A stretch of 56,703 nt of DNA from an uncultured Candidatus Micrarchaeota archaeon (GCA_903832205.1 CAILAH010000026.1:1-56703), one strand, 5' to 3'. Counted from the first letter of the stretch, positions 7,989 to 46,211 are shown. The notes: a model not told the origin generated them from the sequence alone. Program-made: numbers and translations.

Positions 7989-8010
7989 AGTATTCACCAT
8001 TAGCATAATC

Positions 8011-12815: not shown

Positions 12816-13564
12816 TTCCTGGCATTTCCTATACTAATATAAATTTCCCTAATGCGGTCTCTGCCAGCCACGTTGTTTGTAAGCCATTCATGGAATTCTT
12901 TGTCATCTTTTACGTTCCTTATGTCCTTATCTGTATAGGTGGCGTTAGGCTCCTTGCTTATGTAATCGAGCAGCTTTAATTCCGAATCATACTTGGGCAT
13001 CGTGCGCGCCTTGAGTAGTTTTGTTAACAAAATGTCAAGTGTTAGATAGAGGACCATATATGAGGCTATCCATCCCGTCCATGACCAGAAAGCATTGGGC
13101 ATCTTATCAAATAAATTCTCATATAGGGACATGGCGCCAGGTTTCCACTGGTCTATAATGGTTAAGGAAGAAATGAGACTGGCCATGTGGGCGATATCAT
13201 CGCCCTTCCTTTTCTTCGTATCCCTGTGCTTTTGCACATGGGACTTCATATCGGCAACCATTGGCCGTACATCTTTCATCTCGTTTTTTTCTTTCTCTTC
13301 CTGCGCCTTAAGCGCTTCCTCAAGCTTCTGCGCTTCCAATTCTGACGCTGCCTTTTCTGCCGCTTCGCTTTTCATTTTTTTCGCGGCATCATCAATGCTC
13401 ATCTCTTTCTTGCCGAGTTTTACCATTCCGGGCTTCGCGCCGAGGATTCCCTGCTCTTCGTATTTGCCGAGTATCGGGTCCGGGAGCTTTTTTGTGGCAG
13501 GTTTGTCAGGATTTAAAACAGGCTTCTGCGCGCCATTGAGTTTCTGTAAAACTGCCATGATCAT
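12812..13564 (-). CDS. Tagged array protein, membrane-hairpin class
   Basis: Tag: KLPDPILGKYEEQGILGAKPGMVKLGKKEMSI. An E/K-rich helix follows, then a hydrophobic region AFWSWTGWIASYMVLYLTLDILL. Confidence 0.85.
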   Translation of the reverse strand: MIMAVLQKLNGAQKPVLNPDKPATKKLPDPILGKYEEQGILGAKPGMVKLGKKEMSIDDAAKKMKSEAAEKAASELEAQKLEEALKAQEEKEKNEMKDVRPMVADMKSHVQKHRDTKKRKGDDIAHMASLISSLTIIDQWKPGAMSLYENLFDKMPNAFWSWTGWIASYMVLYLTLDILLTKLLKARTMPKYDSELKLLDYISKEPNATYTDKDIRNVKDDKEFHEWLTNNVAGRDRIREIYISIGNARK

Positions 13565-14442: not shown

Positions 14443-14450
14443 GAGTATCA

Positions 14451-15272
14451 CTATTTCTTTTCCTTTGCCGCCTTCTCGGCAATCTCCTTTGTCAGCTGCT
14501 TTTCCAGTAATGCAACGAGGTCTTGATTTCTGGGCACAATATTCGATATTAGCGATATTACGTTATTCCCATTATTTTCGCAGATGCCCACGCGCGCTCC
14601 CTTTTCTATGAGCTGCTTGCAGATCTCTAATTGAGATCTGGCCGCGGCGAACATAAGGGCGGTTACGCCATCCTTATCCTGGCTATTTAGCTTGGCTCCC
14701 TTCTCGATGAGCAGCTCGCACATCCTCTTGTTATTGTTACGGGCTGCGCACATGAGGGCAGTCTCATCCTCACGCCCCCTCTTGTTCACATTGGCGCCCC
14801 TCTCTATGAGGAACATTGCCGTGTCGGTACCCTCCTTTGCATGGGCTTCTTTTACATAGGTGGCCAAAATCGTCAGCGGTGTTTGGCCGGTCTCGTTCTT
14901 TGCGTTCACGTCCGCATCCCTTGATGCGAGGAACCTGGCAACATCGAAATGGTTATTGGCCAATGCGCACATGAGCGGCGTTGAGCCCTTTACCCAGTTG
15001 GGGCTGGCCGCATCTATTGAGGCGCCCTTGGCGAACAGGTCCTTTACGGCCTGCAGGTCGCCCTTCTCAGCAGCAGCAAAAAAAGACTGATTTAATGCAT
15101 CCAGGTCGGCAAGCGCCTTTGCCTGAACTTTCCTCACGCCATCCATCACCGCATCGGACCTGGCCTTTTCCTGGTCAAACGGCTTCTTGGTATCAACGGT
15201 AGAAACATCAGTGCCGAACAGGCCTTCCCGTTCTATTGCATCAAGCATTGGGTCTCTCTTTTTTTGCACCAT
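14451..15272 (-). CDS. Tagged array protein, ankyrin-repeat class
   Basis: N terminus is MVQKKRDPMLDAIEREGLFGTDV. Ankyrin repeats follow (GSTPLMCALANNHFDVARFLASRDADVNAKN, ETALMCAARNNNKRMCELLIEKGAKLN, and others). Confidence 0.9.
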   Translation of the reverse strand: MVQKKRDPMLDAIEREGLFGTDVSTVDTKKPFDQEKARSDAVMDGVRKVQAKALADLDALNQSFFAAAEKGDLQAVKDLFAKGASIDAASPNWVKGSTPLMCALANNHFDVARFLASRDADVNAKNETGQTPLTILATYVKEAHAKEGTDTAMFLIERGANVNKRGREDETALMCAARNNNKRMCELLIEKGAKLNSQDKDGVTALMFAAARSQLEICKQLIEKGARVGICENNGNNVISLISNIVPRNQDLVALLEKQLTKEIAEKAAKEKK

Positions 15273-17804: not shown

Positions 17805-18788
17805 TCACTCAACTACTCCGTTGGTTATGTAATTATGAATCTTCTCCGCGCTTGTGCTGCCACTGAGTACCAGGTCGGCAATCTCGTTGCGGAAATCCTT
17901 GTCATATTGCAAGGCATTAAGGGCATCTTTTGACTCAAAAGTGTTTAGGCTGCCATGGATGTTAATCATGCTGTTGAATAGGTTCTTTATTGCCATCTCC
18001 TTTTTCTTGTAAATTTTATTGACAAGCTTGTGGACTAAATAAAATGTGGCGCATGTGGCTACGGCTATGGCAAGGGCACACATGGCTCCGGTACTGCTCT
18101 TAAGGCTGGGCACGTTTTTGACTGTTGCAATTATGCCGCCCATGAAAATAGGAAGGCTTGAAATAAAGGCTGCAAGTGGTGCCGAGCCGAATTCCTTCAT
18201 CTGGTTTTCGTTAAGCAGCCTGTCTCTTGATTTTTCCAGAAGGGTGACGGGCTCGAGAATTATGGCTGAGCCTGCGTTGATTGCTGGAATATTACTCTTA
18301 ATGGGCCCTGCATTGATTGTTGGAATGCTAGTCTGTGTTAATGGGCCCCCTGTTGTTGTTGAAACGTTTGGCGTGGTTGTTCCTGTAAATGTTCCGTTAA
18401 TTTTGAAATTCTTTAACATGTATTCTTCATGGCTTTTGCCCATTTTCGCATCAAAAGCGTTAAAGAAACGCGTTCCAGCCCCGGTCCTGTTTCTGTCTTC
18501 CCGGTTCATTGCGAGCCGCCTTTCCGCCTCCGCCGCGAGCCTCTTTTGCTCTTCGGCCTTGTGCAGGTCCTCCACCGCAATGTCCTTCCCATCGGTTTTT
18601 ACCATGCCTGGCTTAACGCCCAGGAGGCCGTCATCGTTGTATCTGCTTAATATTGGGTCGGGGAGAGCGGGCTTTTTCGATGTTACCATAGTAACATTGC
18701 CCGCTTTCACTGTTGGTTTTTCCACTTTCTCCTCACGCTCTTCAGCGAGCGTCTTCAGGAATGGGTCTTGCTTGTGCGAAACTACCAT
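17805..18788 (-). CDS. Tagged array protein, membrane-hairpin class
   Basis: Has QDPFLKTLAEE followed by NVTMVTSKKPALPDPILSRYNDDGLLGVKPGMVKTDGKDIAV. Hydrophobic pair: APLAAFISSLPIFMGGIIATV...GAMCALAIAVATCATFYLV. Confidence 0.85.
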   Translation of the reverse strand: MVVSHKQDPFLKTLAEEREEKVEKPTVKAGNVTMVTSKKPALPDPILSRYNDDGLLGVKPGMVKTDGKDIAVEDLHKAEEQKRLAAEAERRLAMNREDRNRTGAGTRFFNAFDAKMGKSHEEYMLKNFKINGTFTGTTTPNVSTTTGGPLTQTSIPTINAGPIKSNIPAINAGSAIILEPVTLLEKSRDRLLNENQMKEFGSAPLAAFISSLPIFMGGIIATVKNVPSLKSSTGAMCALAIAVATCATFYLVHKLVNKIYKKKEMAIKNLFNSMINIHGSLNTFESKDALNALQYDKDFRNEIADLVLSGSTSAEKIHNYITNGVVE

Positions 18789-19339
18789 TAGTACCACTTT
18801 ATATCTACGAGCGCCTGCGCAATCGGGTCGCCCAAATCGGCAATCTCCTTAAGATAGCCCATGAGTATTGGGTTGCTCCTCATCAGATCCAGATCCCTGA
18901 CGATGTGCGCCTGCTGCTCACCCGTTTCTATCGCATATAATATGTCCTTCAGTGCGGCAACGTCGCTCTTGCCGTCCAAAAAGGAGCTGATTCTCGATAA
19001 GAATGATTTGTCTTTCATATCGTTCAGCTTTGTGCGAATATCGGTAACCTTTTTGAGTATTAGATTGCGTTTTGCAAGCGCATCCGCCTGGGCTTTTGTG
19101 GCAGCCTTCTCTTCTGTCTCCCGCAGCTCTTTCACTACGCCCTTAACTATCGAGTCAAGCTCTAAGGGATTGAGCGCAGGGGTGCCTGTCCTATCAGGCT
19201 GCGGGATTGCTACAACCGGCATGCTGCCAGCTTTGGGAAGCGGTTTTCCGAATAGCCCGTCTTCCCTCACCCTCTGGAGGATAGGGTCCTCCTTTTTTTC
19301 AGGTTTCTTGGTCTTTTTGTTGAAGATTTTGAAATTCAT
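18788..19339 (-). CDS. Tagged array protein, small soluble class (paralogue of 19345..19923)
   Basis: Tag: KKEDPILQRVREDGLFGKPLP. The C-terminal ~100 aa (GKSDVAALKDILYAIETGEQ...DLGDPIAQAL) are collinear with the next gene. Confidence 0.8.
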   Translation of the reverse strand: MNFKIFNKKTKKPEKKEDPILQRVREDGLFGKPLPKAGSMPVVAIPQPDRTGTPALNPLELDSIVKGVVKELRETEEKAATKAQADALAKRNLILKKVTDIRTKLNDMKDKSFLSRISSFLDGKSDVAALKDILYAIETGEQQAHIVRDLDLMRSNPILMGYLKEIADLGDPIAQALVDIKWY

Positions 19340-19344
19340 AATCA

Positions 19345-19923
19345 TCACTTGGTTGAGATAAGCGCATTTGCAATCGGGTCGCCCAAATCAGCGAGCTCCT
19401 TCAGGAAGCACATCAGGACCGGGTTCTGCCTTACCAATTCCATATCCTTTGCGATATGCACGTACTGCTCGCCCTTCTCTATCGCATATAGTATGTCCTT
19501 CAGTGCGACCACGTCGCTCTTTCCGCCAAGTGCGGATGAAATCTTTGAGAAGAGTGATTTGCCCTCTTTCATCCCGTTCAGCTTCCCGCGTATCTCAGTA
19601 ACCTTTACTAGTATGACGCCGCGTCTCACGGCCGTATCAATCCGGGCCTTTGCGGCCTCCTTGCCGATTTCCTGCTCTTTCAGCCTGTTCATTGCTTCAT
19701 CAACAATCTTGCCAAGAACAGGGACGCCGCTTGTATCAGGTAGCGGGAGTGTCGCTCCCGGTTTTGAGCCAAGTATGCCTTCCCGTTCATACTTGTCAAG
19801 CATCGGGTCCGGCTTCTTCAGCGGGGCTTTTGCCGCGGCCGCCTTGGCCGTCGGGCCCTGAAAGTCGGTGCCCTCCTCTTCAAGTTTCTTGAGGAATGGG
19901 TCTGTGCCTTTTTTCTGCGCCAT
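19345..19923 (-). CDS. Tagged array protein, small soluble class
   Basis: Has TDPFLKKLEEEG followed by KKPDPMLDKYEREGILGSKPG. C terminus: GKSDVVALKDILYAIEKGEQ...DLGDPIANAL. Starts at ATG 19923 after TGGTGCTTAAT. Confidence 0.8.
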   Translation of the reverse strand: MAQKKGTDPFLKKLEEEGTDFQGPTAKAAAAKAPLKKPDPMLDKYEREGILGSKPGATLPLPDTSGVPVLGKIVDEAMNRLKEQEIGKEAAKARIDTAVRRGVILVKVTEIRGKLNGMKEGKSLFSKISSALGGKSDVVALKDILYAIEKGEQYVHIAKDMELVRQNPVLMCFLKELADLGDPIANALISTK

Positions 19924-19924
19924 A

Positions 19925-20725
19925 TTAAGCACCATATTTCGTTGTGATGGCACCAACAATTGCCGCGGAAATCTTTTGGTCCGTCTCATCCTTGAATACG
20001 GCCAGTGCCGCAAAGCTCTCATCAGTATCAATTTCTATAAGCGACCAAACGCATCGCATTTTTATATCGAATATATCCTTCGTAATATCCACGTTTCCCG
20101 TGTTTTTAAGATTCCTGAGCGCAACATCCCTGTAGATGGCAACTATCTGCTCAACTGCCGTTGGGTCTTTTATCACTCCAAGCCCCGCAATTATTTTTCT
20201 CGCATGGAGGCTTAGTGCGGAGACGTCAGCTCCAGTATTTGAGATATCAATGCGGTCCAAGAATCCCTTGACAACACCCGGCATCAGCGGGCACGTGATT
20301 GCCAGGTCCTTATTTAGAAAGTCAACAAGCATTTTTGGATCCAAGCTAAAACTGGAATAATAGTAGGCATACTTTCCCGCCTGGTCCGGAAAGCCAATCT
20401 TCATAAGGGTGTTGAGCGCCGCAATGACATTTGTCTCGCTCATGTTTCCATCCTGCTTGTCCAGCCCCGCTATGAGCGTTTCCGAAAGTATCCTGTTGAT
20501 GCCTCCTGAAAGTACGGGCGCAGCCACCGGGCCCCTAATCTCTCCGCAAACCTTCTTTTGTATTTCCTCAACCTGCGGAATGGCCTTGCCGAAAAGGCCG
20601 TCCTTCTCGACCTGCGCCACTATGGGGTCAACAGTGTCCCTCTTTGGCTTCTGTGCAAATGCCTGTCCGCCAGTGGGAACTGTGCCTCCATTGGCATTTT
20701 CTGGTTTCTTGGTATCTTCTGCCAT
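19925..20725 (-). CDS. Tagged array protein, soluble alpha-helical class
   Basis: Tag: DTVDPIVAQVEKDGLFGKAIPQVEE. No TM segment. Confidence 0.85.
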   Translation of the reverse strand: MAEDTKKPENANGGTVPTGGQAFAQKPKRDTVDPIVAQVEKDGLFGKAIPQVEEIQKKVCGEIRGPVAAPVLSGGINRILSETLIAGLDKQDGNMSETNVIAALNTLMKIGFPDQAGKYAYYYSSFSLDPKMLVDFLNKDLAITCPLMPGVVKGFLDRIDISNTGADVSALSLHARKIIAGLGVIKDPTAVEQIVAIYRDVALRNLKNTGNVDITKDIFDIKMRCVWSLIEIDTDESFAALAVFKDETDQKISAAIVGAITTKYGA

Positions 20726-21464: not shown

Positions 21465-22778
21465 TCACTTCCTCGTTGCCGCTGCAAGCGTTGAAAGCCA
21501 CTCTGCAATAGGCGTCCATTCCTTGTCAAGCGCGCTTATCACGTCCGGGTGCAGTGCGCCGTGCTTCAGCTCGGCGAATGCCCTCGTCAATACGGTTTCC
21601 TTGTCCTTGAACCTTGCCTGTATCCTTCCAATGACCTCGTTTGCGAACAGGATGGGGTTGCCTTTGTGGTTTTGCTCAACGAACCTCGGGTCAAAAATGC
21701 CCAGGGGCGGCGCAACTATCCTGAACACCTGGAGGACATCCGCCACATCGTTCTTCATGGTCGGCGTCACTTCGCGCTCGTCATCCTGTGCCTGTGCCAA
21801 GTTCTTCGACTCGGCAACGGCCTGGAGCGCAAGCGTCAGGCGCATTATGTTCTTCATCGCACGGGTTGACGGGGCCTTTACGAAGCCGCAGCCGCCTGCG
21901 AGGTCTTCGCATCCCTTGCACACTATTGAAGGTATGCCGGACTTGATCTTCTTCTTCTCCATCTTCATCTTGCTGCACCAGTTCAGGCCGAACCTGAGGT
22001 ACTGGGCCATGAGAAGCATGTTGGAAGTTGGCTGCAGCTCGCTGATCACCTTTGACATCGCGATGAACTCGTCGTCCCACTTTATCTTCTGCTCCGCCTC
22101 GTAGACGTGGACGCGCGGGTCGTGGTCTCCCGCCAGTATGTGCGAAAAGTCGCTCGGCGAGATCTCAAAGTGGTTGAGGTCGATAATAACGTTAAGGCGG
22201 TCAAGCAGTGCGTCACCCAGCTCGAACGTGCCCGAATGCTCCTTGCCGACGTTTCCCGTAGCCAGCATGACTGCATAGCCGTCGCCAATCCTGTGCTCCT
22301 TTCCCCTGTGCCTGAACACCCCGTTTGCGAGTGAAAGCAGCTGGTTCTGCACGATTGGCGGGCCCCTGGTAATCTCATCAACCACGATGACGTGGGTGTT
22401 GAGGGTTTCGGTTAATTCATGAATATCAGCATCTGTTAATGCCTGCTTGTTGTAGAGCTTTCCGAGGTTCAGCCTCGCATAAAGCTCCTTCACTGACAGG
22501 TCGGGCTCCATCTCCAGGAACACGCCCCTGCCGCCGAATGCGCGGAAGAAGAAGTCGCTCACCGCATCCGTCTTTCCCTCACCGCGGCCTCCTGCCAAAA
22601 AGAGGTTTGACCTTGAAATGAGGCAGGCCTTGATTACGTCCTCCACCTGGAGGGACTGGCCGCGCACGGTTGCGATTACTGCCGAGTTGCGGTACTTGTC
22701 AGGCGTTGGAACCCTGGCAATACGCGGAGCCAACTCGTCAAACACGGCCTGGTTGCTAAGCTTTTGAGCAGTTGTCAT
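21465..22778 (-). CDS. MoxR-like AAA+ ATPase with a C-terminal extension
   Basis: Walker A in LAGGRGEGKT. Walker B in HVIVVDEITR. Sensor or Arg-finger region MLATGNV...GDALLDRLNVIIDL. The ~200-aa C-terminal part includes CKGCEDLAGGC. Confidence 0.85.
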   Translation of the reverse strand: MTTAQKLSNQAVFDELAPRIARVPTPDKYRNSAVIATVRGQSLQVEDVIKACLISRSNLFLAGGRGEGKTDAVSDFFFRAFGGRGVFLEMEPDLSVKELYARLNLGKLYNKQALTDADIHELTETLNTHVIVVDEITRGPPIVQNQLLSLANGVFRHRGKEHRIGDGYAVMLATGNVGKEHSGTFELGDALLDRLNVIIDLNHFEISPSDFSHILAGDHDPRVHVYEAEQKIKWDDEFIAMSKVISELQPTSNMLLMAQYLRFGLNWCSKMKMEKKKIKSGIPSIVCKGCEDLAGGCGFVKAPSTRAMKNIMRLTLALQAVAESKNLAQAQDDEREVTPTMKNDVADVLQVFRIVAPPLGIFDPRFVEQNHKGNPILFANEVIGRIQARFKDKETVLTRAFAELKHGALHPDVISALDKEWTPIAEWLSTLAAATRK

Positions 22779-22836: not shown

Positions 22837-23625
22837 TCAGGCTTTGCCAGTAAAATCCGGCTTGGCTTCACTGGCAAAACCAAGCTCGGCCTTCTGGGCA
22901 AAATCAGACTCTAGAGGATTAGATTCCTTCCTTTGGTAAAACATCTTCTCAAGCTCCCACGCCTTTGAGTAGCCCGCAACCGCAAGCTCGTGGAGGCCTT
23001 TCCTTAAATCCGCATCATCCTTGATATCAGTAAGAATAGCGCTATTGAATACCTTCCCATTAGCCAATTCATTGAGTGCGCCTGCAATAAGCTTCGAGTC
23101 CTCCACTGCTTTTTCCATCTGCCGCTCAAGCTCGCGGCCTACAATGATTCCGCTTATTATCATGTTAACGGAAATGCTGCCGGCAAAAACCGATAGCAGG
23201 AAGTGATTGGAAAAAGCCACTGAAAGCCAGGTAATGATGCCCCCTATAACTCCGGCAGTGGTCAAAAAAGGCGCAAGCGCGCTCCTATCTATCAAGGCAA
23301 CCCTCCTCTTCTCCCCTTTCTTCATTATTTCCCCGCCAAGGGCGTCCATCCTCCTGCTCATCGTCATCCGGTATATTGGGTCAGCAGGCTTTTCGCACAG
23401 CTTTTCCCACTCCTTTCCCAACGCCTCCCTTTTCATTATTAGAGCCGCAGTACCAATGCTGACCTGCTTCTCCCCGTCCTTTGCCATCCCCGGCCTTGCC
23501 CCAAGGATGCCTTCCGAATCGTACATATCCAGGATAGGGTCCCTTTTGGGAAATGGCTTTTTTACCTCTGCCGTGGCTGTCCTTGCAGTCTGCGACAATG
23601 GTGCTGCCTTCCCCCTAATAACCAT
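22837..23625 (-). CDS. Tagged array protein, membrane-hairpin class
   Basis: Tag: FPKRDPILDMYDSEGILGARPGMAKDGEKQVSI. Hydrophobic pair: LAPFLTTAGVIGGIITWLSVAF..LLSVFAGSISVNMIISGIIVG. Confidence 0.85.
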   Translation of the reverse strand: MVIRGKAAPLSQTARTATAEVKKPFPKRDPILDMYDSEGILGARPGMAKDGEKQVSIGTAALIMKREALGKEWEKLCEKPADPIYRMTMSRRMDALGGEIMKKGEKRRVALIDRSALAPFLTTAGVIGGIITWLSVAFSNHFLLSVFAGSISVNMIISGIIVGRELERQMEKAVEDSKLIAGALNELANGKVFNSAILTDIKDDADLRKGLHELAVAGYSKAWELEKMFYQRKESNPLESDFAQKAELGFASEAKPDFTGKA

Positions 23626-24428
23626 TACAATCCCTTCATCCTTTGCTGGAGCTGCTGCGCCTCCGCGTGGCCTTGTGAGGCGAGGCCGTTAACGTAATCT
23701 ATGAATACTTTCTCCTTCGCAGCTTTCCTGAGGAGCTTGTCAGAAATGGGCTCCCCCGCCTCAAGCGCCTTTTCGGCATCAAGCGCATTCTTCAGCCCGA
23801 AAAGCGCGATGATGTGAATTATTATCGGCCTGTTAAAGAAGTATATCAGCCCCGTTCCTGCTGTAAGCATTGCCAATGATGCATTGAATGTAACGTGATC
23901 ATCGGCACTGCGAATGAACATCCAGCCCGAAGCCGCCATAAAGCCCGACACAATGCTTGGTATGTCGCTTATGGACAATGCCGCCTTGCTGAATTTAGAC
24001 CCGCCCTTTATCTGCTGGTCTGACTTATCAAAAAATTCCTTCTTCACCTGCGCTATCTTCTCCTTTTTCTCCTTTCCCGCCTGGCAGCGTGAGTGCTGCA
24101 GCGCCCTCTCAATCCTCCTCATCCTGTAATGCCTTTGCAGCTCTGCCTTCTCAAAAGCAACCTGCCTCTGCCAGGCAGCGGCCTCATCAGGGGTCACTAT
24201 TTCGCCCTGGCGCCCCAGCGCCTTTCCCGGCGGGCAGCCAAACAGGCCCTCTTTATTATACCTGTCAAGAATGGGGTCGGGGAGGGAAGCCCTGCGTGAT
24301 GTTACCATAGTAACATTGGCTTCACTCGCTTTCTTTTTTCCAATATCCGCAACCGCTTTTGCATCCTTTCCCCTTTCTCCCTCACCGGAAACGGGCGGGC
24401 TTTTTTGTTTTAGCGAGAGCATCATCAT
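23625..24428 (-). CDS. Tagged array protein, membrane-hairpin class
   Basis: Tag: NVTMVTSRRASLPDPILDRYNKEGLFGCPPGKALGRQGEIVT. Hydrophobic segments IPSIVSGFMAASGWMFI and LAMLTAGTGLIYFF..IIIHIIALFGL. C-terminal ALEAGEPISDKLLRKAA. Confidence 0.85.
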   Translation of the reverse strand: MMMLSLKQKSPPVSGEGERGKDAKAVADIGKKKASEANVTMVTSRRASLPDPILDRYNKEGLFGCPPGKALGRQGEIVTPDEAAAWQRQVAFEKAELQRHYRMRRIERALQHSRCQAGKEKKEKIAQVKKEFFDKSDQQIKGGSKFSKAALSISDIPSIVSGFMAASGWMFIRSADDHVTFNASLAMLTAGTGLIYFFNRPIIIHIIALFGLKNALDAEKALEAGEPISDKLLRKAAKEKVFIDYVNGLASQGHAEAQQLQQRMKGL

Positions 24429-24434
24429 ATGCAC

Positions 24435-25241
24435 CTACATGCGGCCGATGTTTCTTTCCCTTCTCTTTTTTGCATCGTAAAGTTTTTCATTTAAGACAGC
24501 ACTCATGCGCCCGTACAGCTCGGCCGCTTCTGCGGAGCCTTCATCTTCGAGCTTCTTAAAGCAGTCATGCAGCTCCTCACCATAATAGTTACAGTTGAGT
24601 ATGTTGCTGTCCCTGCACATGGCCACCGCGGCCTTGAGGGCATCATCGCTTATCTTCTCGCCTTTCTCAAACGCATCCAGCACCCTGATGCCAGCCATGG
24701 CCGCCGTGCGGCGCTTTCGCGACCACACTACATCCGGCTTATCAAATGTCATCGCTATCCGCACGGTTGCTGCAAAAAGGATCAGGCCGCCAGCGGCGTA
24801 GAGAGGGACACTTAGCCACCAGCTCTTCTGTGGCAATGCTAACACGACCAGCGACGCCCCCATTCCCATGATTACTGCGCCAATTTTCCAAAAGCTCCGT
24901 ATCTGCTTGGTTGCATTCTCGACCTGCATTTCCAACATGCGCCTGGTATCGCTCAGTAACTCTTCCCTTTTCCTGCGCTTCGTATCTTCGTCACTCACCA
25001 GCTTTTCCTGCACCGTCTTCTCAGCGAGCTCACCCGCCACGTCAAGCGTCACTTCCTTCCCTTTCACTGCCACCATTCCTGGTTTTGCTCCAAGAATCCC
25101 CTCTTCCCTGTATTTGTCTAATATGGGGTCGGGGAAGCGGGGCTTTTTCGATGTTACTATAGTAACATTGGCTTCACTTGCCTTCCTATTATTAGTATTA
25201 GTTAGTACCGGCTTTTTCTGAATATCCTTCAGCCCTGCCAT
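24435..25241 (-). CDS. Tagged array protein, membrane-hairpin class
   Basis: Tag: NVTIVTSKKPRFPDPILDKYREEGILGAKPGMVAVKGKEVTL. Hydrophobic pair: IGAVIMGMGASLVVLAL..LSVPLYAAGGLILFAATV. C-terminal LDAFEKGEKISDDALKAAV. Confidence 0.85.
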   Translation of the reverse strand: MAGLKDIQKKPVLTNTNNRKASEANVTIVTSKKPRFPDPILDKYREEGILGAKPGMVAVKGKEVTLDVAGELAEKTVQEKLVSDEDTKRRKREELLSDTRRMLEMQVENATKQIRSFWKIGAVIMGMGASLVVLALPQKSWWLSVPLYAAGGLILFAATVRIAMTFDKPDVVWSRKRRTAAMAGIRVLDAFEKGEKISDDALKAAVAMCRDSNILNCNYYGEELHDCFKKLEDEGSAEAAELYGRMSAVLNEKLYDAKKRRERNIGRM

Positions 25242-25261
25242 CGTTGAAAATTGGGATAATT

Positions 25262-25277
25262 AGATGTTTTAAACCTT
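25262..25277 (-). promoter_or_regulatory. Internal TATA element of the array
   Basis: On the minus strand, AAGGTTTAAAACATC is centred about 29 nt upstream of ATG 25241. It lies in a 181-nt non-coding gap (25242-25422). Confidence 0.45.
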
Positions 25278-25422
25278 CTGATTATAGACGGGCTGCATAA
25301 TGCCTCAATTGACGAAAGTTATAGAAAAGTATAACTTTGGTCGTTTCATCAAAAATCGCTTACGACTGAACAATCTGCCTGGCGCTTTAAGCCCTCATCA
25401 GCCGGATGCTTAAGCCTTGCCA

Positions 25423-26178
25423 TCACGGGTAGGGAGGGAAGGGGAACTTTCCCGCGCCCCTCATTCCCGCCGTGCTGAGGAGCTTGACCTGTTCCTGAAA
25501 TTCCTTATCCTTTTCCACCAGCTTTATGTCCTTTGCATCCGGCTCAAGATCGCCCTGGATGTTTTTTAGGATGCGCAGCTTATTCTCGACATGGGCGATT
25601 TCTGCTTTACAATTAACCCGGCCAAGGGACGTGTAATAAGTATAGACTAGCATTCCCATGAATGTCAGCACGCCTAATAAATCAGTAAGAACATAATGCT
25701 CGGACCCGAACCTAACCACGATGCTTACTATGGGCGCAACAGTCCCGATAGCGCCGCACCAAAGCGACGCATTAAACCGCCTGTGGTCCTTGCGCTCGGA
25801 TTCAAGCTCCAAGCCAACCTCCCTGAAAATATGATCAAATAAAACCGGCCCTGCATTCTGCTTGAATGCATCATCCGCCCTTCCTGACCTAAGCATCCTT
25901 CCTGACCTAAGCATGCTTATTATTTGCCGTATATTCTCTTTTTCTGCGCGCTCTCTCGCTTCAGCCATCTCTTCATCATGCGCCTTTGCATCCTTGAGCG
26001 TAATCTCCTTCCCGTCCTTGTCCTTTACCATGCCGGGCTTTACGCCAAGAATTCCCTCATCATTATATCTGGAAAGCATCGGGTCAATCCTATGAATAGA
26101 GGTCCTTTTACTCCCTGCATCCGCTGCCGTTTCCTTGCTGAAAACCTTTCTAATGCCCGCAAACCTAGGGCTGTGCAT
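25423..26178 (-). CDS. Tagged array protein, membrane-hairpin class
   Basis: Tag: HRIDPMLSRYNDEGILGVKPGMVKDKDGKEITL. Hydrophobic pair: LWCGAIGTVAPIVSIVV...LLGVLTFMGMLVYTYY. Start is 26178 or 26187. Confidence 0.85.
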   Translation of the reverse strand: MHSPRFAGIRKVFSKETAADAGSKRTSIHRIDPMLSRYNDEGILGVKPGMVKDKDGKEITLKDAKAHDEEMAEARERAEKENIRQIISMLRSGRMLRSGRADDAFKQNAGPVLFDHIFREVGLELESERKDHRRFNASLWCGAIGTVAPIVSIVVRFGSEHYVLTDLLGVLTFMGMLVYTYYTSLGRVNCKAEIAHVENKLRILKNIQGDLEPDAKDIKLVEKDKEFQEQVKLLSTAGMRGAGKFPFPPYP

Positions 26179-26899
26179 CGTCTTCATCCTCGGTCATCTC
26201 ATACTCGTACAGTGCGCGGGCTTCCGCGGCTCCCTTGACATCCGCCTTCTCAAGCTTGTTCAGGACTTCTACCATTTCATCCAGGCCCCTTGTCTTTGCA
26301 ATGTCCTTGGTGTCCACAACCGCCCCTTCCTTCATTGATTTTACCACGCGCATCGCCGCTTCCATTTTTCTCTTCTTGAATATTGGAAAGCCCAACTTCT
26401 TCAGTAATGCTACTGCACAAATCGCGCAAAATCCCGAGGCAATATATAGGCCGCAATCCACCAGGAACAGTATGGGCACGCGCAATACTGCTTCAGAGGC
26501 GTTGAGGAAACCCCCGGCAGTGCCGGTTACAACTGCTGCTCCGGAAAGCCAGGATATCCCGTTTACAGCAAACTGCATTTTCTCATGCTTCTCGGCCAGA
26601 TCTCCCTCAACCGATTTGAATACAAACACCAATTTCATCCTAGTTAACTCGTTTAATTGCGCCTCCGTCTCAGCCTTCTCTTCGGCTTTTTGCGTTGCAA
26701 TTTTCTCTTCCTTCTCCTTTGCAAAAAGCTCCTTTGCCCTCTCGACCGTAATCTCTTCGCCCCCCTTTCCCTTCACAAGGCCCGGTTTTGCCCCAAGTAT
26801 CCCTTCATTATCATACTTATCAAGAATAGGGTCAACCTTGCGGATAGGCTTCTTGTTGTCTTTTTTCTCCGCTGGCTTTCCATCCTTGAATATTGGCAT
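26165..26899 (-). CDS. Tagged array protein, membrane-hairpin class (MxI[LF]K..KPAEK subfamily)
   Basis: MPIFKDGKPAEKKDNKKPIRKVDPILDKYDNEGILGAKPGLVKGKGGEEITV. Hydrophobic pair: ISWLSGAAVVTGTAGGFL...VPILFLVDCGLYIASGFCAICAVALL. Confidence 0.85.
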   Translation of the reverse strand: MPIFKDGKPAEKKDNKKPIRKVDPILDKYDNEGILGAKPGLVKGKGGEEITVERAKELFAKEKEEKIATQKAEEKAETEAQLNELTRMKLVFVFKSVEGDLAEKHEKMQFAVNGISWLSGAAVVTGTAGGFLNASEAVLRVPILFLVDCGLYIASGFCAICAVALLKKLGFPIFKKRKMEAAMRVVKSMKEGAVVDTKDIAKTRGLDEMVEVLNKLEKADVKGAAEARALYEYEMTEDEDDAQP

Positions 26900-26904
26900 G
26901 AAAA

Positions 26905-27651
26905 TCATTCCTCTTTTATCGCCTCGATCTTCTTCCCCAGAATATTTTCTACGCGCTCACGCAATTTTTTGGCCTCATCAGTGCCGGTTTCCTCCGCTAA
27001 CCGCGCAATGGATTGGTTCAGCTTGTAATTAAAGGACAGGGCTTTGATAAGGTCTTTTTCAGATATTTTTTCACCTTTTTCATAAGCATCAAGAATCTTC
27101 AGCCCAGCTTTCCAGCCGGAGAAATGCTCTATACACCACCGTGTCCCGGACTCATCATCATCGTTCATATCGCCCATGTCAAAAATGACCCGAAATGCTG
27201 CGCTGCCAGCCACAAGGGTCATTATAACACCTATTATGCCCAGTGGGATAAGTATCACAACATCAGAAAAATAATACGCCGCTCCGGCTAAAGACGGCCC
27301 CATGACTCCTAAAATGAAATTAAAACGCAGGAAAGACTTAGCATGGCCCTTGTACCCTTCTTGATCCTCTTTTATGGAATTCCTCGCCTCGTTTATTATC
27401 TCAAGCTCCCGTGCACGCCGTTCCTTGAGCGCCATTTCTTTTTTCTCAAGCTCCAATTCTGCGCTTTCCTTTTTTGCTGCAATCTCCGCCTGCTCGATTG
27501 TCAGCTGCTCGCCTTTCTTTCCTTTCACAAGGCCGGGCCGTGTACCTAGAATTCCTTCCTCCCTATACTTATCAATAATAGGGTCAACCCTGCGGATAGG
27601 CTTCTTATCTGCATTCTTCTCCGCTGGCTTTCCATTCTTCAATATTTCCAT
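26905..27651 (-). CDS. Tagged array protein, membrane-hairpin class (MxI[LF]K..KPAEK subfamily)
   Basis: MEILKNGKPAEKNADKKPIRRVDPIIDKYREEGILGTRPGLVKGKKGEQLTI. Hydrophobic pair: FNFILGVMGPSLAGAAYYF..VVILIPLGIIGVIMTLVAGSAAF. C-terminal LDAYEKGEKISEKDLIKAL. Confidence 0.85.
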   Translation of the reverse strand: MEILKNGKPAEKNADKKPIRRVDPIIDKYREEGILGTRPGLVKGKKGEQLTIEQAEIAAKKESAELELEKKEMALKERRARELEIINEARNSIKEDQEGYKGHAKSFLRFNFILGVMGPSLAGAAYYFSDVVILIPLGIIGVIMTLVAGSAAFRVIFDMGDMNDDDESGTRWCIEHFSGWKAGLKILDAYEKGEKISEKDLIKALSFNYKLNQSIARLAEETGTDEAKKLRERVENILGKKIEAIKEE

Positions 27652-27662
27652 AATCATTTCCC

Positions 27663-28445
27663 CTATTCCATGAGAATTTTTTTGATGCGATTGTGCAGCG
27701 CCAGTGCTTTCTCATTGCCCGTGGTTTCCGCAAGCTCCTTCATGCAACGCACAAGTTTCGAATCTGTTTCCAGGCCAAAAAGCTCTTTCAGCAACTTGTG
27801 GTCCAGGTCAAGCGCAGTCCTAAGCTTCTCATCGCTGATTTCCTCGCCCTTTTCGTAGGCGCCAAGCACCTCCAGCGCCGCTTTGCTGCTGTATATATTG
27901 CTGATTGAGTTTCTAGCATTTTCTATTTTATAGCGGTCCTGCCGGTCATCTGCTGTGCCAAAGACCATTTCTTTCATATAACCCAGCGTTCCAACAACTG
28001 TTAAAACCCCCAAAATGCCGACAAATCCCCACGACCAATGGGACATGAAATGGGCCGTTGTGAACAGTGCTGCACTAACCGAATTTATGATGCTAATATC
28101 CCTCAGGAACACGCGGGCTTCCTTTCTCCCTTCATTATAATCGCTGGTTATGGAATTCCTTGCATTGCTTAGTATATCCGCCGCTCTTTTGCTCAGCTCC
28201 ATCTCCTTGGCACGCTGCACCTGAAGTGCTTCCTCTCTCGCAATCCTCTCCAAATCCTCCTTCTCTTTCCTTTCCGCATCCTTTGCCTCTTCGACGGTCA
28301 GCTCCTTTCCATTCCTCTTTATCTTGCCTGGCCTCACTCCAAAAAGGCCTTCCTCCCTATACTTATCAATAATAGGGTCAACCCTGCGGATAGGCTTTTT
28401 CTCTGCAATCTTTTCCGCTGGTTTTTCACTCTTTAATATTGGCAT
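27663..28445 (-). CDS. Tagged array protein, membrane-hairpin class (MxI[LF]K..KPAEK subfamily)
   Basis: MPILKSEKPAEKIAEKKPIRRVDPIIDKYREEGLFGVRPGKIKRNGKELTV. The 5' end overlaps the upstream gene by ~20 nt. C-terminal LGAYEKGEEISDEKLRTAL. Confidence 0.85.
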   Translation of the reverse strand: MPILKSEKPAEKIAEKKPIRRVDPIIDKYREEGLFGVRPGKIKRNGKELTVEEAKDAERKEKEDLERIAREEALQVQRAKEMELSKRAADILSNARNSITSDYNEGRKEARVFLRDISIINSVSAALFTTAHFMSHWSWGFVGILGVLTVVGTLGYMKEMVFGTADDRQDRYKIENARNSISNIYSSKAALEVLGAYEKGEEISDEKLRTALDLDHKLLKELFGLETDSKLVRCMKELAETTGNEKALALHNRIKKILME

Positions 28446-29235
28446 TGGAATCATCCTTGCTATTGTAGATTTCAATCTTGCACTTTTTCTTCTCGAGTAT
28501 AATCGCTTGCGCGCGCTCAAGCAGGGCTTTCGCTTCTGTAGAGTCCGCCTCCTCCGCTAGCGCTTTCAGGCAACTGCGCAAATCCCCATCGAGATTAACC
28601 GCCTTCATAAGGTCCCTATCGGTTATGGGTTCGCCCTTTTCGAACGCATCAAGCACCCTCTGTTCCACTTTCCAGGCGGAATATTTGCCAAAAGCATTCC
28701 TTGCTTGGGAGAAATCATTCTTATGATAGTAATCGAAATTATCGTCGAAGAAAGCAGCGTAAAGCATTTTATAGGTTGTACTAATACATGCAAACCCAAC
28801 GATACATAGAAGCGGTGTCCATACTAGGTGGGAAGCATATAATCCCCCTGCAATAACTCCTGGACCTGACAAGCCGACGAATGTTGCCAGAAGCGAAAAA
28901 TTCCGTATCTCCTCTTTCCCTTCCTTTATGTTGTCTTCAATGGAGCTCTTTGCCGTGCTTATTATCTCAAGCTTCCTTTTGCCCTGCTCCATCTCCTTGG
29001 CACGCTGCTCAAGCAACGCCTCTTCCCTCGCCGCTTTCTCCAAATCCTCCTTTTCCTTCTTTTCTGCGGCCGTTAATTCCTGAACGGTCAGCTCTTTCCC
29101 GTTCTTTGTTACCATTCCTGGCTTTGTGCCAAGGATTCCCTGTTCATCGTATTTGCCCAGAATAGGGTCAATCCTGCGGATAGCCTTCTTATCTGCAATC
29201 TTTTCCGCTGGTTTTTCACTCTTCAATATTGCCAT
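28426..29235 (-). CDS. Tagged array protein, membrane-hairpin class (MxI[LF]K..KPAEK subfamily)
   Basis: MAILKSEKPAEKIADKKAIRRIDPILGKYDEQGILGTKPGMVTKNGKELTV. Hydrophobic pair: LLATFVGLSGPGVIAGGLY...TPLLCIVGFACISTTY. C-terminal LDAFEKGEPITDRDLMKAV. Confidence 0.85.
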   Translation of the reverse strand: MAILKSEKPAEKIADKKAIRRIDPILGKYDEQGILGTKPGMVTKNGKELTVQELTAAEKKEKEDLEKAAREEALLEQRAKEMEQGKRKLEIISTAKSSIEDNIKEGKEEIRNFSLLATFVGLSGPGVIAGGLYASHLVWTPLLCIVGFACISTTYKMLYAAFFDDNFDYYHKNDFSQARNAFGKYSAWKVEQRVLDAFEKGEPITDRDLMKAVNLDGDLRSCLKALAEEADSTEAKALLERAQAIILEKKKCKIEIYNSKDDSNANIKE

Positions 29236-29240
29236 AATCA

Positions 29241-29975
29241 TCAGTTCACATTCCTTAGAAGCGCCTCTGTGCGCGCGAACAGGATCTTGGCGCGTTCGGA
29301 ATTTGCCTGTGCAAGGTCCTTGATACAGGTGTAGAGGTAGCCCGTGTGGTAAATCCCCTCACGCAGCTCCCCATCACTGATCTCCTTCCCCTTCTCAAGC
29401 GCATCAAGGGCTTTCAGCGCCGTCTCCAACGACCTCATCTCCCTTCGGGTGTGGAAAATGTCGGGAAGAAAAGTTCCTGACCTCATATAGGAGCCAACGA
29501 CAACAGAAAAATTCCACATGCCCGTTATGAATGCTTGAAGGGCCGATATGGCTTCTAGTATTGGGCTTTCTGTCGTAAATGCCAAAACGGTTGATTCAAC
29601 AAATAAGAATGCAAAAGTGGAGCAGAGGATTATGTTTCTCTTCCATTCACTGGTTTTTCCCTTAAGCGTGACTTTCATATTATTCCTTGCATCTGCGATT
29701 ATATCTTGCTCCCTGGCGTTTTGCTCCCGGGCTGCCTTCGCTTTTTCCACATTCTCCATGTGCGCTTCCAGTTTCCTATCAAGCGCGGCATCCTTTTTTA
29801 CAAATGCATCTGCCTGCTCGGCTGTCATCTCCTTTCCGTTTACCTTAACCATTCCCGGCTTCACGCCGAGAATACCTTCCTCGCCATACTTGCTCAGGAG
29901 CGGGTCCAGGGGCTTTCGGCCTTTCCCGTTATTGGAATTCAGCGACAATGTGGTTGATTTTTGTGTGATTGCCAT
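29241..29975 (-). CDS. Tagged array protein, membrane-hairpin class
   Basis: MAITQKSTTLSLNSNNGKGRKPLDPLLSKYGEEGILGVKPGMVKVNGKEMTA. The middle is hydrophobic. C-terminal LDALEKGKEISDGEL. Confidence 0.85.
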   Translation of the reverse strand: MAITQKSTTLSLNSNNGKGRKPLDPLLSKYGEEGILGVKPGMVKVNGKEMTAEQADAFVKKDAALDRKLEAHMENVEKAKAAREQNAREQDIIADARNNMKVTLKGKTSEWKRNIILCSTFAFLFVESTVLAFTTESPILEAISALQAFITGMWNFSVVVGSYMRSGTFLPDIFHTRREMRSLETALKALDALEKGKEISDGELREGIYHTGYLYTCIKDLAQANSERAKILFARTEALLRNVN

Positions 29976-29986
29976 CCACTTACACC

Positions 29987-30772
29987 TTACGTATCAATTA
30001 CGGGTTTGGATTTCATCCATCTCTTCCTGCCATCCGCGTCGTCAATGTCAAGGACCAGGCCACCCTGCTTGAACATCTCGCCCCTGATGTAATACGCCGC
30101 CCTGCTGCCCTTCGCCATAAACTCATGAAGCGTTTCTATAAATTTCCAATCATTCTTCAGAACGCTAATTTCCTTCTGGAGATTCATGCAGTTGTCTGCT
30201 TCTATCGCCCCAATCAGTTTTTTCATCGCCTTGATTTCTTGGTTTAGCCGCCTTTGCATAAGCTCTTCAACTGCAATTATGGCAAATATCCCGCTACCAA
30301 AGAATGCGGGTATGCTAAGGGTTGCAAACAACGCCGGAAAATCAAGCAAAATGGATGCTGTAACTATGCTTCCCGCCGTCAAGCCGCCGGCTATTAGTGA
30401 CTTAATTATTGTTGAATTTGATAAGGCATCTGGAACTTTCTTTTCTGGAAGAACCCCGCTCAGGAATGACCGCGCCTTGCTTGATATTTCATTTGGATCG
30501 CCAACATTATGCCCCATTGTCTTGAGCCCTTCCTCTGCCTCGGCTAGAATCTCCATATTGAATTTTTCCGGCGGTCTTTCTTTTGCCTTCTTCTCTGCAA
30601 TCTTATTTGCCTCTTTGAGCGTGAGTTCCTTTCCCCTCTCTCCCTTAACCATTCCTGGCTTGGCGCCGAGTATTCCCTCAGCAGTATACTTATCGAGTAT
30701 CGGGTCGGGAAGCTTCCTGCCTTTCCCGTTACCAGAATTCAGCGACAATGCGATTGGTTTTTGTGACAACAC
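29987..30772 (-). CDS. Tagged array protein, membrane-hairpin class
   Basis: GTG/TTG start. (M)LSQKPIALSLNSGNGKGRKLPDPILDKYTAEGILGAKPGMVKGERGKELTL. ~50-aa bilobed hydrophobic block: IIKSLIAGGLTAGSIVTASILLDFPALFATLSIPAFFGSGIFAIIAV. Confidence 0.8.
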   Translation of the reverse strand: MLSQKPIALSLNSGNGKGRKLPDPILDKYTAEGILGAKPGMVKGERGKELTLKEANKIAEKKAKERPPEKFNMEILAEAEEGLKTMGHNVGDPNEISSKARSFLSGVLPEKKVPDALSNSTIIKSLIAGGLTAGSIVTASILLDFPALFATLSIPAFFGSGIFAIIAVEELMQRRLNQEIKAMKKLIGAIEADNCMNLQKEISVLKNDWKFIETLHEFMAKGSRAAYYIRGEMFKQGGLVLDIDDADGRKRWMKSKPVIDT

Positions 30773-30781
30773 ATTATCAAC

Positions 30782-31615
30782 TCAGGGGATTATTGGGCCA
30801 TGCCCTTTTGGTAGCTGCGCTTGGCGTTGGAGATCTTCCTTGCGCTCGTTCACGAACGCCCTGTTATCGAGCTTCTCAAGCTCGTCGAGTATCATCTTGG
30901 CGGTGGCAATGCCTCCCATAGTGCTTTCAGGCACGAATGAACGGTAGCCGTTCTTCAGTTTCTTGAGAATCTGCCTCAAATCATCATCGTGCATTACCTG
31001 TGGGAGCTTGTCCTTAATGCCTTCAATTCCTTTGTTCTGCTTCACTGCCTCAATAATTTCGCGCTTGATTTTAGACTCATTTTTCATTTTCGCCTCATAG
31101 CGCATGAACATAAGCGCTGTAACCAGTAGTGTCGCAAGGGCGGCATAAATCTTTGGGAATGAATAAAAATGATGCGTGATTGCAAGCGGAACAAAACAAA
31201 AGATGCCTGAAATACCAACGGATTTCGTGGTGTTGAATACCCTGCGGGCAGTTTTCTTATCGGCTTCAGCCGAGTACAACTCCGTCTTTGCTTTCCTTAT
31301 CATCGCATTGATGTGGATTTCGGACGGGACTTCAAGCCCCGAAAGCACCTGGGTTTCATTATACTTTTCAATCTCTTCCGCCACCGGCTTGTATACAATT
31401 GTGGCCTGCACTTCAGCCTCTTCCTTTTTCGCCTGCTCTTTTGCCTGCTTAACTGTGAGCATTTCGCCCTTCTTTCCCTTCACCATTCCCGGCTTTGCAC
31501 CGAGGATTCCCTCATCATCGTACATGCCGAGGATTGGGTCGGGCAGCTTTTGCGCAGCCTTAGGTTTCTTATTAGGAATACGGAAGATCTTGTGTAGCAT
31601 ATCCTTTGCTGCCAT
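30782..31615 (-). CDS. Tagged array protein, membrane-hairpin class (first gene of the array)
   Basis: Tag: QKLPDPILGMYDDEGILGAKPGMVKGKKGEMLTV. Hydrophobic pair: VGISGIFCFVPLAIT...IYAALATLLVTALMFM. Confidence 0.85.
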   Translation of the reverse strand: MAAKDMLHKIFRIPNKKPKAAQKLPDPILGMYDDEGILGAKPGMVKGKKGEMLTVKQAKEQAKKEEAEVQATIVYKPVAEEIEKYNETQVLSGLEVPSEIHINAMIRKAKTELYSAEADKKTARRVFNTTKSVGISGIFCFVPLAITHHFYSFPKIYAALATLLVTALMFMRYEAKMKNESKIKREIIEAVKQNKGIEGIKDKLPQVMHDDDLRQILKKLKNGYRSFVPESTMGGIATAKMILDELEKLDNRAFVNERKEDLQRQAQLPKGHGPIIP

Positions 31616-31690: not shown

Positions 31691-32020
31691 TTACTTTCTG
31701 GGCTTGGTGCCCTGAATAACCCACTTTTCGAATTCAGGAATTGCGGTTGAGTTCCAGGAAAGGATGTCCGGAAGCTCATAGGGGTGGGACTTCTTGATTA
31801 GCGCGATTGCCGCCTTCTTCTTCTTTGGCGTGGTCTTGGCAATCAGTATGAACTCAAACGTCTCCTGGAGCGCGCCCTTCCACTCGTAGAAGCTGCGGGA
31901 CTTAAGGATGTTTGCGCATGCGGCGGCGCGCGCCGTAAGGAGGCGCCTTGCGGCCACCTTTGCGGACTTGAAATTGGGAAACGGCGAATACACGATTGCA
32001 ATCATGGCATTCTGATGCAT
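31691..32020 (-). CDS. cutA: CutA1 divalent-cation tolerance protein
   Basis: The 109-aa product has ..AACANILKSRSFYEWKGALQETFEFILIAKTT...IKKSHPYELPDILSW.., the CutA1 signature and length. Confidence 0.85.
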   Translation of the reverse strand: MHQNAMIAIVYSPFPNFKSAKVAARRLLTARAAACANILKSRSFYEWKGALQETFEFILIAKTTPKKKKAAIALIKKSHPYELPDILSWNSTAIPEFEKWVIQGTKPRK

Positions 32021-46158: not shown

Positions 46159-46211
46159 AATATCCCAGAGAAAGGTAGTAAATCTCCGGAATGCAAGCCA
46201 AAAGAGCCATT

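Follow-up and report, generated by a model that had tools for sequence, protein, structure and literature searches.

A nearly orphan family of hairpin membrane proteins in a Micrarchaeota archaeon bears a portable leader genetically coupled to a MoxR ATPase and a zincin-like vWA protein

Introduction

Host manipulation and attachment by DPANN archaea are largely unexplained at the protein level, and a dense array of genes for small membrane proteins in an uncultured Candidatus Micrarchaeota archaeon raises the question of which membrane such proteins occupy and which machinery handles them. The array lies at positions 22837-31615 of a 56,703-nucleotide stretch (GCA_903832205.1, CAILAH010000026.1:1-56703; hereafter the window), which is contig C26 of a 1.11-Mb, 70-contig genome (82% complete) and is marked as archaeal by core genes for TFIIB, NurA, Kae1/TsaD and aIF5A. 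An initial interpretation of the window (the sequence-only reading) had likened the encoded proteins to the inclusion-membrane (Inc) effectors of chlamydiae, suggesting that they might lie either in a membrane at a symbiont-host contact or in a specialised structure of the cell's own membrane. The hairpin family proves to be one payload class of a larger leader-tagged system, which is tied to a module consisting of a MoxR-type AAA+ ATPase and a protein with a zincin-like N-terminal domain (N-domain) and a von Willebrand factor type A (vWA) domain, here called the vWA-peptidase. We tentatively favour the view that the hairpins are N-in/C-in anchors in the cell's own membrane and that the MoxR/vWA-peptidase machine handles the leader. 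Approximately one crude open reading frame (ORF) in 12 of this genome carries a common leader, and approximately 25 hairpin proteins lack relatives beyond a few metagenome fragments. The leader and the conserved ATPase/vWA-peptidase pair thereby offer a concrete biochemical handle on a repertoire that resembles a host-interaction or membrane-remodelling toolkit.

Architecture of the array-encoded membrane proteins

The array comprises 11 co-directional minus-strand ORFs of 244-285 aa, which overlap or are separated by gaps of at most 11 nt, with the exception of one 181-nt gap. All 11 match the tag expression DP[ILMV]..[KR]Y..EG[IL][LF]G.[KR]PG, and the same tag occurs in five further ORFs of the window (11252-12034, 11988-12815, 12812-13567, 13564-14451 and 17805-18797), which confirms the 16 membrane members counted in the sequence-only reading and places the tag at residues 23-53 across the whole set. 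The members are approximately 250 aa long and begin with a basic N terminus, which is followed by the conserved leader of approximately 30-40 aa that includes the tag (hereafter DP-leader). A long helix rich in charged residues, a hydrophobic hairpin of two lobes and a four-helix C-terminal domain (C-domain) then follow in this order.

A signal peptide is absent, as the sequence-only reading had stated: none of the 16 members has an N-terminal hydrophobic core, and the maximal 12-residue Kyte-Doolittle (KD) mean within the first 35 residues ranges from -0.61 to 1.14. The segment preceding the tag is basic (4-16 K+R vs 0-7 D+E), and the linker following it spans 64-107 residues, of which 28-48% are D/E/K/R and 17-39% E+K. 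The coiled coil proposed for this linker was not borne out by a crude heptad score, which exceeds that of shuffled sequences (z ≥2) in only two of the 16 members; the linker may be a single charged helix, which is as likely as a coiled coil. The bilobed hydrophobic block, by comparison, held up well. Two uncharged lobes of 14-30 aa each, separated by 1-17 residues (30 in 13564-14451), are present in 12 of the 16 members, including the earlier quoted example (29987-30772), and a single uncharged block of 41-49 aa in three; in the remaining member (29241-29975), the first lobe contains three Glu residues. Lobe 1 is often weakly hydrophobic (mean KD 0.75-1.85), and the 15 residues on either side of the hairpin contain 0-6 and 1-6 K/R, respectively.

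An AlphaFold2 model of 26905-27657, built with 28 family rows, reached a predicted local distance difference test (pLDDT) score of 84.4 and a predicted template modelling score (pTM) of 0.68. It renders the leader as a short helix within the tag (residues 26-34) and a beta-hairpin (43-53), followed by a continuous helix joining the charged linker to lobe 1 (54-130), a two-residue turn, a helix corresponding to lobe 2 (133-159) and, after a loop, four helices (172-249) that constitute its best-modelled part (pLDDT 95-98). This model, a check that the sequence-only reading had itself proposed, supports the helical C-domain, while the statement that this domain often carries the motif LDA[FY]EKGE[KE]IS[DE]xxL was too generous (strict form in two of 16 members, relaxed form in six).

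None of the 11 array proteins matches a Pfam family at or above its cut-off, and two members tested against NCBIfam and PADLOC returned no match (for PADLOC, none at E ≤0.01). Foldseek retrieved nothing for the 26905-27657 model from the PDB at E ≤0.001 (best 0.71). The best whole-model fold match is the ESCRT-III protein CHMP3 (PDB 2gd5; Z 8.1, root-mean-square deviation 2.9 Å over 115 residues, model residues 83-234, 10% identity), with Sulfolobus islandicus CdvB at Z 6.2 and many unrelated helical proteins at Z 6-7.5. Common to CHMP3 and the model is a long hairpin of helices against whose open end shorter helices pack, but the hairpin tip in the array protein is hydrophobic and membrane-like. 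As scores of this size are common for helical models, we take the match as a likeness of predicted arrangement and not of kinship.

The DP-leader as a portable module

The tag is far better conserved than the proteins that carry it, with a mean pairwise identity of 56% among the 16 members vs 14-19% for the rest of the protein. A profile of this tag (T1) yielded 49 matches in the genome and a single chance-level match in 150 other genomes of the class, among which two share its genus and six its family. Furthermore, a search with an 8-row tag alignment against species-representative genomes and Joint Genome Institute (JGI) metagenomes returned only a 21-residue chance match on one contig of a bacterial metagenome-assembled genome, a contig that occurs in both collections. 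In addition to the Y-type form found in the array (T1Y), a V-type form reads DPI[LV].[KR]V[KR].EG[LI]FG (T1V).

A second leader type (T2; ..LIDPKKKE.VLQRIKDGKAPFCAEKP.PE) was found among the neighbours of a second MoxR gene. Its profile gave 49 matches in this genome, with 49 of 69 candidates scored, and one chance-level match in the same 150 genomes. At least 36 ORFs open directly with the T2 leader. They are often arranged in tandem, mostly encode ankyrin proteins and are located on contigs C1, C10-C14, C19, C24, C27, C29, C36 and C57, and at 8716-8835 in the window. A third type (T3; FFDPKKK.AMM.R.KKG.PPP.F) is carried by genes on C12 (3785-4492, 4486-5190 and 7548-8234), C65 (345-1223) and C30 (10696-11349); the products of the three C12 genes are hairpin membrane proteins and match the C-domain profile as well. 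Judged by eye, T2 and T3 resemble the V-type T1 leader in having DP, an amphipathic stretch and then G with a hydrophobic pair.

Taken together, regular expressions assign a leader to 92 of 1094 crude ORFs of at least 90 aa (T1Y 25, T1V 23, T2 39 and T3 5). The payloads include many ankyrin-repeat proteins, the hairpin family and two proteins resembling targets of a diversity-generating retroelement (DGR). One of these (46551-47357, T1-type leader) is a DGR target lying beside a reverse transcriptase gene (45055-46335) and an RT-16 RNA (46291-46451), and the other (8011-8844, T2 leader) is its paralogue, with common stretches such as HLPS.VLHDDYLV.SEKW. A half-profile covering the hairpin and C-domain detected 25 ORFs in the genome, of which 19 have a T1Y leader, three T3, one T2 and two none by regular expression; this set left out 26165-26908, which would be the 26th. 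By bilobed hydropathy only, 19 of 25 T1Y ORFs, three of five T3, one of 39 T2 and one of 23 T1V ORFs qualify, compared with 63 of 1002 untagged ORFs. The leader is thus a portable module present on approximately 92 ORFs with unrelated payloads. On many contigs the tagged arrays lie between housekeeping-looking genes, as judged by first residues alone, and for this reason they look chromosomal.

Genetic coupling to a MoxR ATPase and a vWA-peptidase

The clearly untagged genes of the cluster encode the MoxR-type ATPase (21465-22778), the vWA-peptidase (8864-11044), a small stand-alone vWA protein (6543-7337) and an ankyrin protein (7353-8024). The ATPase matches the Pfam families AAA_5 (27.8 bits, cut-off 22) and bpMoxR (27.2 bits, cut-off 27) and contains the Walker A motif GGRGEGKT and the Walker B motif VVDE. 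The vWA metal-site motifs read DTSGSM...SDGE in 8864-11044 and DGSGSM...SDG in 6543-7337, and are conserved in the orthologue of genome G202. Pfam VWA_2 scores 19.5 bits on 6543-7337, below its cut-off of 27, and the C-terminal vWA part of 8864-11044 has no Pfam match. Apart from these AAA and weak vWA matches, Pfam, NCBIfam and PADLOC returned nothing of use for the untagged partners. Both the ATPase and the vWA-peptidase look cytoplasmic, with no hydrophobic blocks found in the scan.

On contig C24, a second, paralogous pair of genes for MoxR and an HExxH-containing vWA protein (HExxH-vWA) is located directly downstream of T2-tagged ankyrin genes. The region at C24 9255-19576 (loci L025, L081 and L099) contains, in one direction, genes for a T2SSE ATPase, two T2SSF platform proteins and a 106-aa ORF, three T2-leader-like genes, two of which have ankyrin repeats, and the MoxR and HExxH-vWA genes. 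The type IV-filament genes of this region (T2SSE and two T2SSF) were considered as a candidate exporter and rejected, as they were not found at the 11 other loci read.

Across the phylum, an HExxH-vWA protein was identified in 22 of 401 sampled genomes, this genome included, and the loci were read in 11 of them. A MoxR homologue is present at 10 of these 11 loci, the eleventh being a contig of 8981 bases. Genome G202, which belongs to a different genus, has the order MoxR, ankyrin, HExxH-vWA, ankyrin, and both of its ankyrin genes start with ..SFIDPKI.EKVKRA..LAREGK. Leader-like N termini flank the pair in G202, G082, G323, G274, G318 and G064 (for example SFIDPKIEKKVKRA, PLIDPKARQEILEAF, ALIDPKTRDDIAGAF, SLFDPQRRKAVRDAI and ILIDPNRTFAGKPIG), and the genes bearing them often form paralogous sets on both sides of the vWA gene. 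The leader is hence genetically coupled to MoxR and a zincin-like vWA protein both here and in other genera. Because other Micrarchaeota genera have the same succession of genes (MoxR, tagged gene, vWA-peptidase, tagged gene), this order appears to be older than this species; special to this genome are the expansion to approximately 92 leader genes and the hairpin payload.

Two of the other loci have features of their own. Locus L093 (G274, contig C15, 4814-13347) contains at least eight small genes starting with ..[AS][LI]FD[KP].RR..IR.AI..G around an HExGHW-vWA gene, an independent expansion of a leader-tagged set. In locus L090 (G323, contig C1, 11981-15889), the genes for MoxR and the vWA-peptidase flank one for a leader-like ankyrin protein of 1302 aa. 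Two hydrophobic segments form a pair within this giant protein, close to residues 948 and 990, so that the present genome is not the only one in which tagged proteins have a hairpin anchor.

A candidate zincin-like N-domain in the vWA-peptidase

HExGHW..CP and a stretch N...D...N are invariant in seven of seven homologues. In a model of this domain (pLDDT 68), three strands precede a helix (residues 101-118) that bears the HExxH motif. Its best VIA matches are mostly zincin-like (Z 6.4-5.2) and include TTHA0227, an HtpX domain, 6mdx (a DNA-protein crosslink repair protease entry), jannalysin and a predicted zincin. Foldseek assigned probabilities of up to 0.92 (selecase), yet with E values of 0.13 or worse. 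A PDB sequence search with 8864-11044 gave no matches, and the Atlas lead for the N-domain amounted to no more than 0.87 for DUF2201_N and 0.90 for CobT clusters. These modelled features fit a minimal zinc peptidase, with which the N-domain is compatible, short of proof.

Distribution and possible origin of the hairpin family

Among 1.84 billion cluster representatives, a 16-row profile of the family retrieved 32 proteins at E ≤0.001, of which 22 are identical to products of this genome, one is a spurious repeat protein and nine are others with 31-99.6% identity to this genome's products. Seven of these nine were looked up and are singletons or pairs, and five of the seven occur only on JGI contigs of 1.2-3.5 kb. 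Two metagenome relatives are each located on a 2254-bp contig, perhaps the same one, which hints at tandem copies elsewhere. The hairpin family is thus almost confined to this organism. A repetitive 1910-aa metagenome protein (P0029; E 8e-7, three stretches) has Gly/Asn/Thr-rich repeats (..QYNDDGILGGNPGM.FDEG..) that resemble the tag core, a likeness that we take as chance convergence.

In 200 other genomes of the phylum, the full-length profile found one weak partial match (24.8 bits), confined to the C-domain, in the same-genus genome G030. Neither a signal peptide nor a single-pass arrangement is seen in the family, and homologues are nearly absent, so that none of the outcomes named in the sequence-only reading as refuting it occurred. 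The G030 gene has no tag and, in its printed sequence, no hydrophobic block, and lies between a transglycosylase-like gene and CutA1. The 25-kb co-directional cluster of the window, in which the minus strand holds every long ORF from 6543 to 31615, is flanked by an SLT/LysM gene (5208-6491) and CutA1 (31691-32020). Since the G030 gene and the cluster occupy matching flanks, the array seems to have grown, or to have been inserted, at the site of one ancestral gene. A C-terminal sequence like that of the G030 gene is retained in two soluble tagged genes of the cluster (18788-19348 and 19345-20031).

Proposed function and alternative explanations

Several features suggest that both soluble ends most likely remain in the archaeon's own cytoplasm: the proteins lack a signal peptide, their charged N-domain exceeds 100 residues, the loops between the lobes are short and K/R are present on both flanks of the hairpin. 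In the explanation that we regard as the most plausible, if still tentative, the hairpins are accordingly N-in/C-in anchors in the cell's own membrane, and the DP-leader would be the handle by which the MoxR/vWA-peptidase machine recognises tagged proteins. The vWA metal site may bind the invariant Asp of the leader, because the metal ion-dependent adhesion sites (MIDAS) of MoxR's vWA partners bind extended peptides, as described in passages of Kaur 2020 (PMC7159879). The candidate zincin domain may then cut off the leader or degrade the protein, and the hairpins would present variable C-domains at the membrane's inner face, where the machine would control them. While the hairpin-anchor architecture of this nearly orphan family is well supported, several points weigh against the functional part of the proposal. 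The topology was derived from hydropathy and flanking charge alone. The VIA scores of the zincin matches lie below the tool's secure level, and the N-domain goes unrecognised by Pfam. Two genomes of the same genus (93% and 64% complete) lack the family, its tag and the MoxR gene alike, so that the coupling within the genus rests on one genome. Between genera, the likeness of the leaders was judged by eye, and the T1 and T2 profiles miss those genomes at E ≤0.01. The closest MoxR homologues (G274 contig 13 and G312; 35-37% identity) adjoin a 355-aa gene without an obvious DP-leader. Finally, approximately 92 clients would, to our knowledge, far exceed any known MoxR system.

The Inc-like alternative offered by the sequence-only reading would make the leader an export or host-targeting signal, with the hairpins inserting in the host membrane at the contact site and both ends facing the host cytoplasm; the MoxR/vWA-peptidase would then be the leader-recognising or leader-removing step of an export pathway. 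In passages of Dehoux 2011 (PMC3048545), Inc proteins are defined by a hydrophobic domain of 40-60 aa with two helices of 15-32 residues and a loop of fewer than 30 residues, a geometry that the array proteins match, although a bilobed domain by itself is stated there to be no guarantee of translocation. The large, tandem, fast-diverging and nearly species-specific repertoire, the small genome and the weak hydrophobicity of lobe 1 are also in line with such effectors. Ankyrin-repeat and DGR-diversified proteins, which bear the same leader here, are typical of host-interaction proteins in symbionts. However, no translocon is known, and none was found: the FHIPEP export gate (PF00771) has no match in this incomplete genome (control positive in 4 of 14 known genomes), and the type IV-filament genes beside the tagged array on C24 do not recur at the other loci. 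A sequence relation to Inc families is likewise lacking, as judged by Pfam for the 11 array proteins. The geometric part of the analogy thus stands, while nothing positive points to export or insertion into a host membrane, and we consider host-directed Inc-like effectors unlikely. A broader version, in which the DP-leader marks a previously unknown archaeal targeting pathway, with MoxR and the vWA-zincin processing the leader on approximately 8% of genes and ankyrin, DGR and hairpin cargo travelling to the host contact site, where the hairpins would insert Inc-like in the host membrane, appears improbable. The second option of the sequence-only reading, a specialised structure in the cell's own membrane, fits the evidence better than the Inc-like one, because no Pfam match and no FHIPEP were found, the conserved leader is unlike Inc signals and this leader is linked to a cytoplasmic-looking MoxR/vWA-peptidase.

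Two further explanations were considered. The family could form a self-assembling scaffold, in which the leader docks on the C-domain of a membrane member and the hairpins gather soluble tagged proteins (ankyrin and DGR-target proteins) into a membrane patch, the MoxR/vWA pair being only an assembly chaperone. The coexistence of approximately 25 hairpin and C-domain ORFs with approximately 92 leaders in one genome, the confidently modelled C-domain and the association of the Y-type leader with the hairpin payload would suit such docking. Conversely, the C-domain is present in a same-genus genome without any leader, and one profile matches C-domains behind T1Y, T2 and T3 leaders, with no co-variation between leader and C-domain types; the scaffold consequently strikes us as a doubtful candidate. 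Alternatively, the hairpins might be latent membrane-disrupting effectors of a conflict system, released or activated when the MoxR/vWA-peptidase removes the leader. Such a mode of action has been proposed for transmembrane effectors of bacterial MoxR-vWA conflict systems. DGR-diversified sensors occur in these systems (Kaur 2020, PMC7159879), and in the present genome the DGR target bears a leader and the ATPase has bpMoxR as its top Pfam match, just above the cut-off; moreover, a hydrophobic hairpin also lies inside the leader-tagged ankyrin protein of G323. Against this idea, the PADLOC models gave no match, 16 tandem paralogues with long structured cytoplasmic domains are, in our judgement, unlike small pore-forming effectors, and the same source ties MoxR-vWA conflict systems to multicellular prokaryotes (Kaur 2020, PMC7159879). 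Conflict effectors are the least probable of the explanations considered here.

Relation to known systems

By gene content, the leader system falls in the broad kind of MoxR-vWA systems with clients. Like RavA-ViaA, CbbQ-CbbO, NorQ-NorD and the ternary systems treated in passages of Kaur 2020 (PMC7159879), it encodes a MoxR ATPase with vWA proteins that keep the DxSxS motif. It differs from these pairs in that its vWA partner has a zincin-like N-domain and a long acidic linker, and in its approximately 92 putative clients with an N-terminal leader in common. The MoxR/vWA pairs described so far are not known to have more than a few clients, and some have one. Should the leader turn out to be a MoxR recognition tag, one such machine would have dozens of clients, a situation for which we know of no earlier case. 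VMAP, STAND and beta-propeller components were not seen in the window.

Leader-marked repertoires with a dedicated protease include the PEXEL proteins and plasmepsin V of Plasmodium, the RxLR proteins of oomycetes and the double-glycine leaders with C39 peptidase exporters. As in these systems, a short conserved N-terminal motif is present on many unrelated, lineage-specific proteins, and a candidate peptidase is encoded alongside. In contrast, the known leaders come after a signal peptide or serve an ABC exporter; neither is seen here, and cleavage of the DP-leader is putative.

Shared features of the array proteins and Inc proteins are the bilobed hydrophobic domain, helical soluble parts, the lack of a cleavable signal peptide and the occurrence as many clustered, lineage-specific, fast-diverging paralogues. 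The N-terminal signals of Inc proteins are not conserved in sequence and their hairpin is usually near the N terminus, whereas in the array proteins the hairpin comes only after a strictly conserved leader and a 64-107-residue stalk. What defines Inc proteins, furthermore, is their secretion by a type III system and their residence in the inclusion membrane. FHIPEP was not found in this 82%-complete genome, and a host-membrane location of the array proteins would be hypothetical. On these defining features, the membrane members are Inc-like in plan only and are not members of the Inc group.

Literature searches combining Micrarchaeota with MoxR or ankyrin, DPANN with ankyrin/DGR/host and with MoxR/von Willebrand, and bilobed hydrophobic with archaea found nothing on this system, and no counterpart of the vWA-zincin fusion, or of leader-bearing genes in such number, is described in the literature searched. 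New to this analysis are the T2 and T3 leaders, the finding of the module at loci of other genera and the candidate zincin assignment.

Gene content of the cluster

All genes of the cluster are encoded on the minus strand. The first gene of the 11-gene array (30782-31615, 277 aa, lobes 132-154 and 156-171) adjoins CutA1 and is followed by 29987-30772 (261 aa, lobes 125-143 and 145-168), 29241-29975 (244 aa, with lobe 2 at 142-164 and a relaxed C-domain motif) and two genes for proteins with a single hydrophobic block and a relaxed motif, namely 28426-29241 (271 aa, 44-aa block at 114-157) and 27663-28520 (285 aa from a TTG start, 41-aa block; the database call has 263 aa from 28454). The modelled member (26905-27657, 250 aa) has the strict motif, and 26165-26908 encodes 247 aa (database call from 26899) with its tag at residue 26 and lobes at 111-138 and 152-169. 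The remaining array genes are 25423-26187 (254 aa, tag 35, lobes 138-158 and 170-189), 24435-25241 (268 aa, tag 38, lobes 120-138 and 140-160, strict motif), 23625-24434 (269 aa, database call from 24425; tag 53, lobes 158-174 and 180-201, relaxed motif ALEAGEPISD) and 22837-23625 (262 aa, tag 29, a single uncharged block of 49 aa at 115-163).

The MoxR-type ATPase (437 aa) is encoded between the array and the two tagged soluble proteins, which are without a hydrophobic block. The sixteenth membrane member (17805-18797, 330 aa) has a longer, Thr/Gly-rich linker, and the four members between 11252 and 14451 belong to the same family. In the vWA-peptidase (726 aa), an N-domain with HEIGHW..CP is joined by approximately 200 aa of acidic, Gly/Lys-rich linker to the C-terminal vWA domain. 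The untagged ankyrin gene lies inside the cluster, and the small vWA protein (264 aa) is encoded by its last gene.

Many array ORFs begin with V[MI][IL]M when translated from the listed GTG, which probably reflects a GGTGAT-like ribosome-binding site just 5' of the true ATG, the listed starts being a few codons too long. Elsewhere in the window, 47760-51449 encodes a 1229-aa protein adjoining the DGR locus, in which Pfam recognises only a Roadblock/LC7 domain, at the C terminus. Parts of the stretch also occur in DNA runs, none of RNA being listed; four such runs, all from a single study of freshwater sediment, contain short fragments that match the stretch at a depth of 2-5 and are nearly identical to the window.

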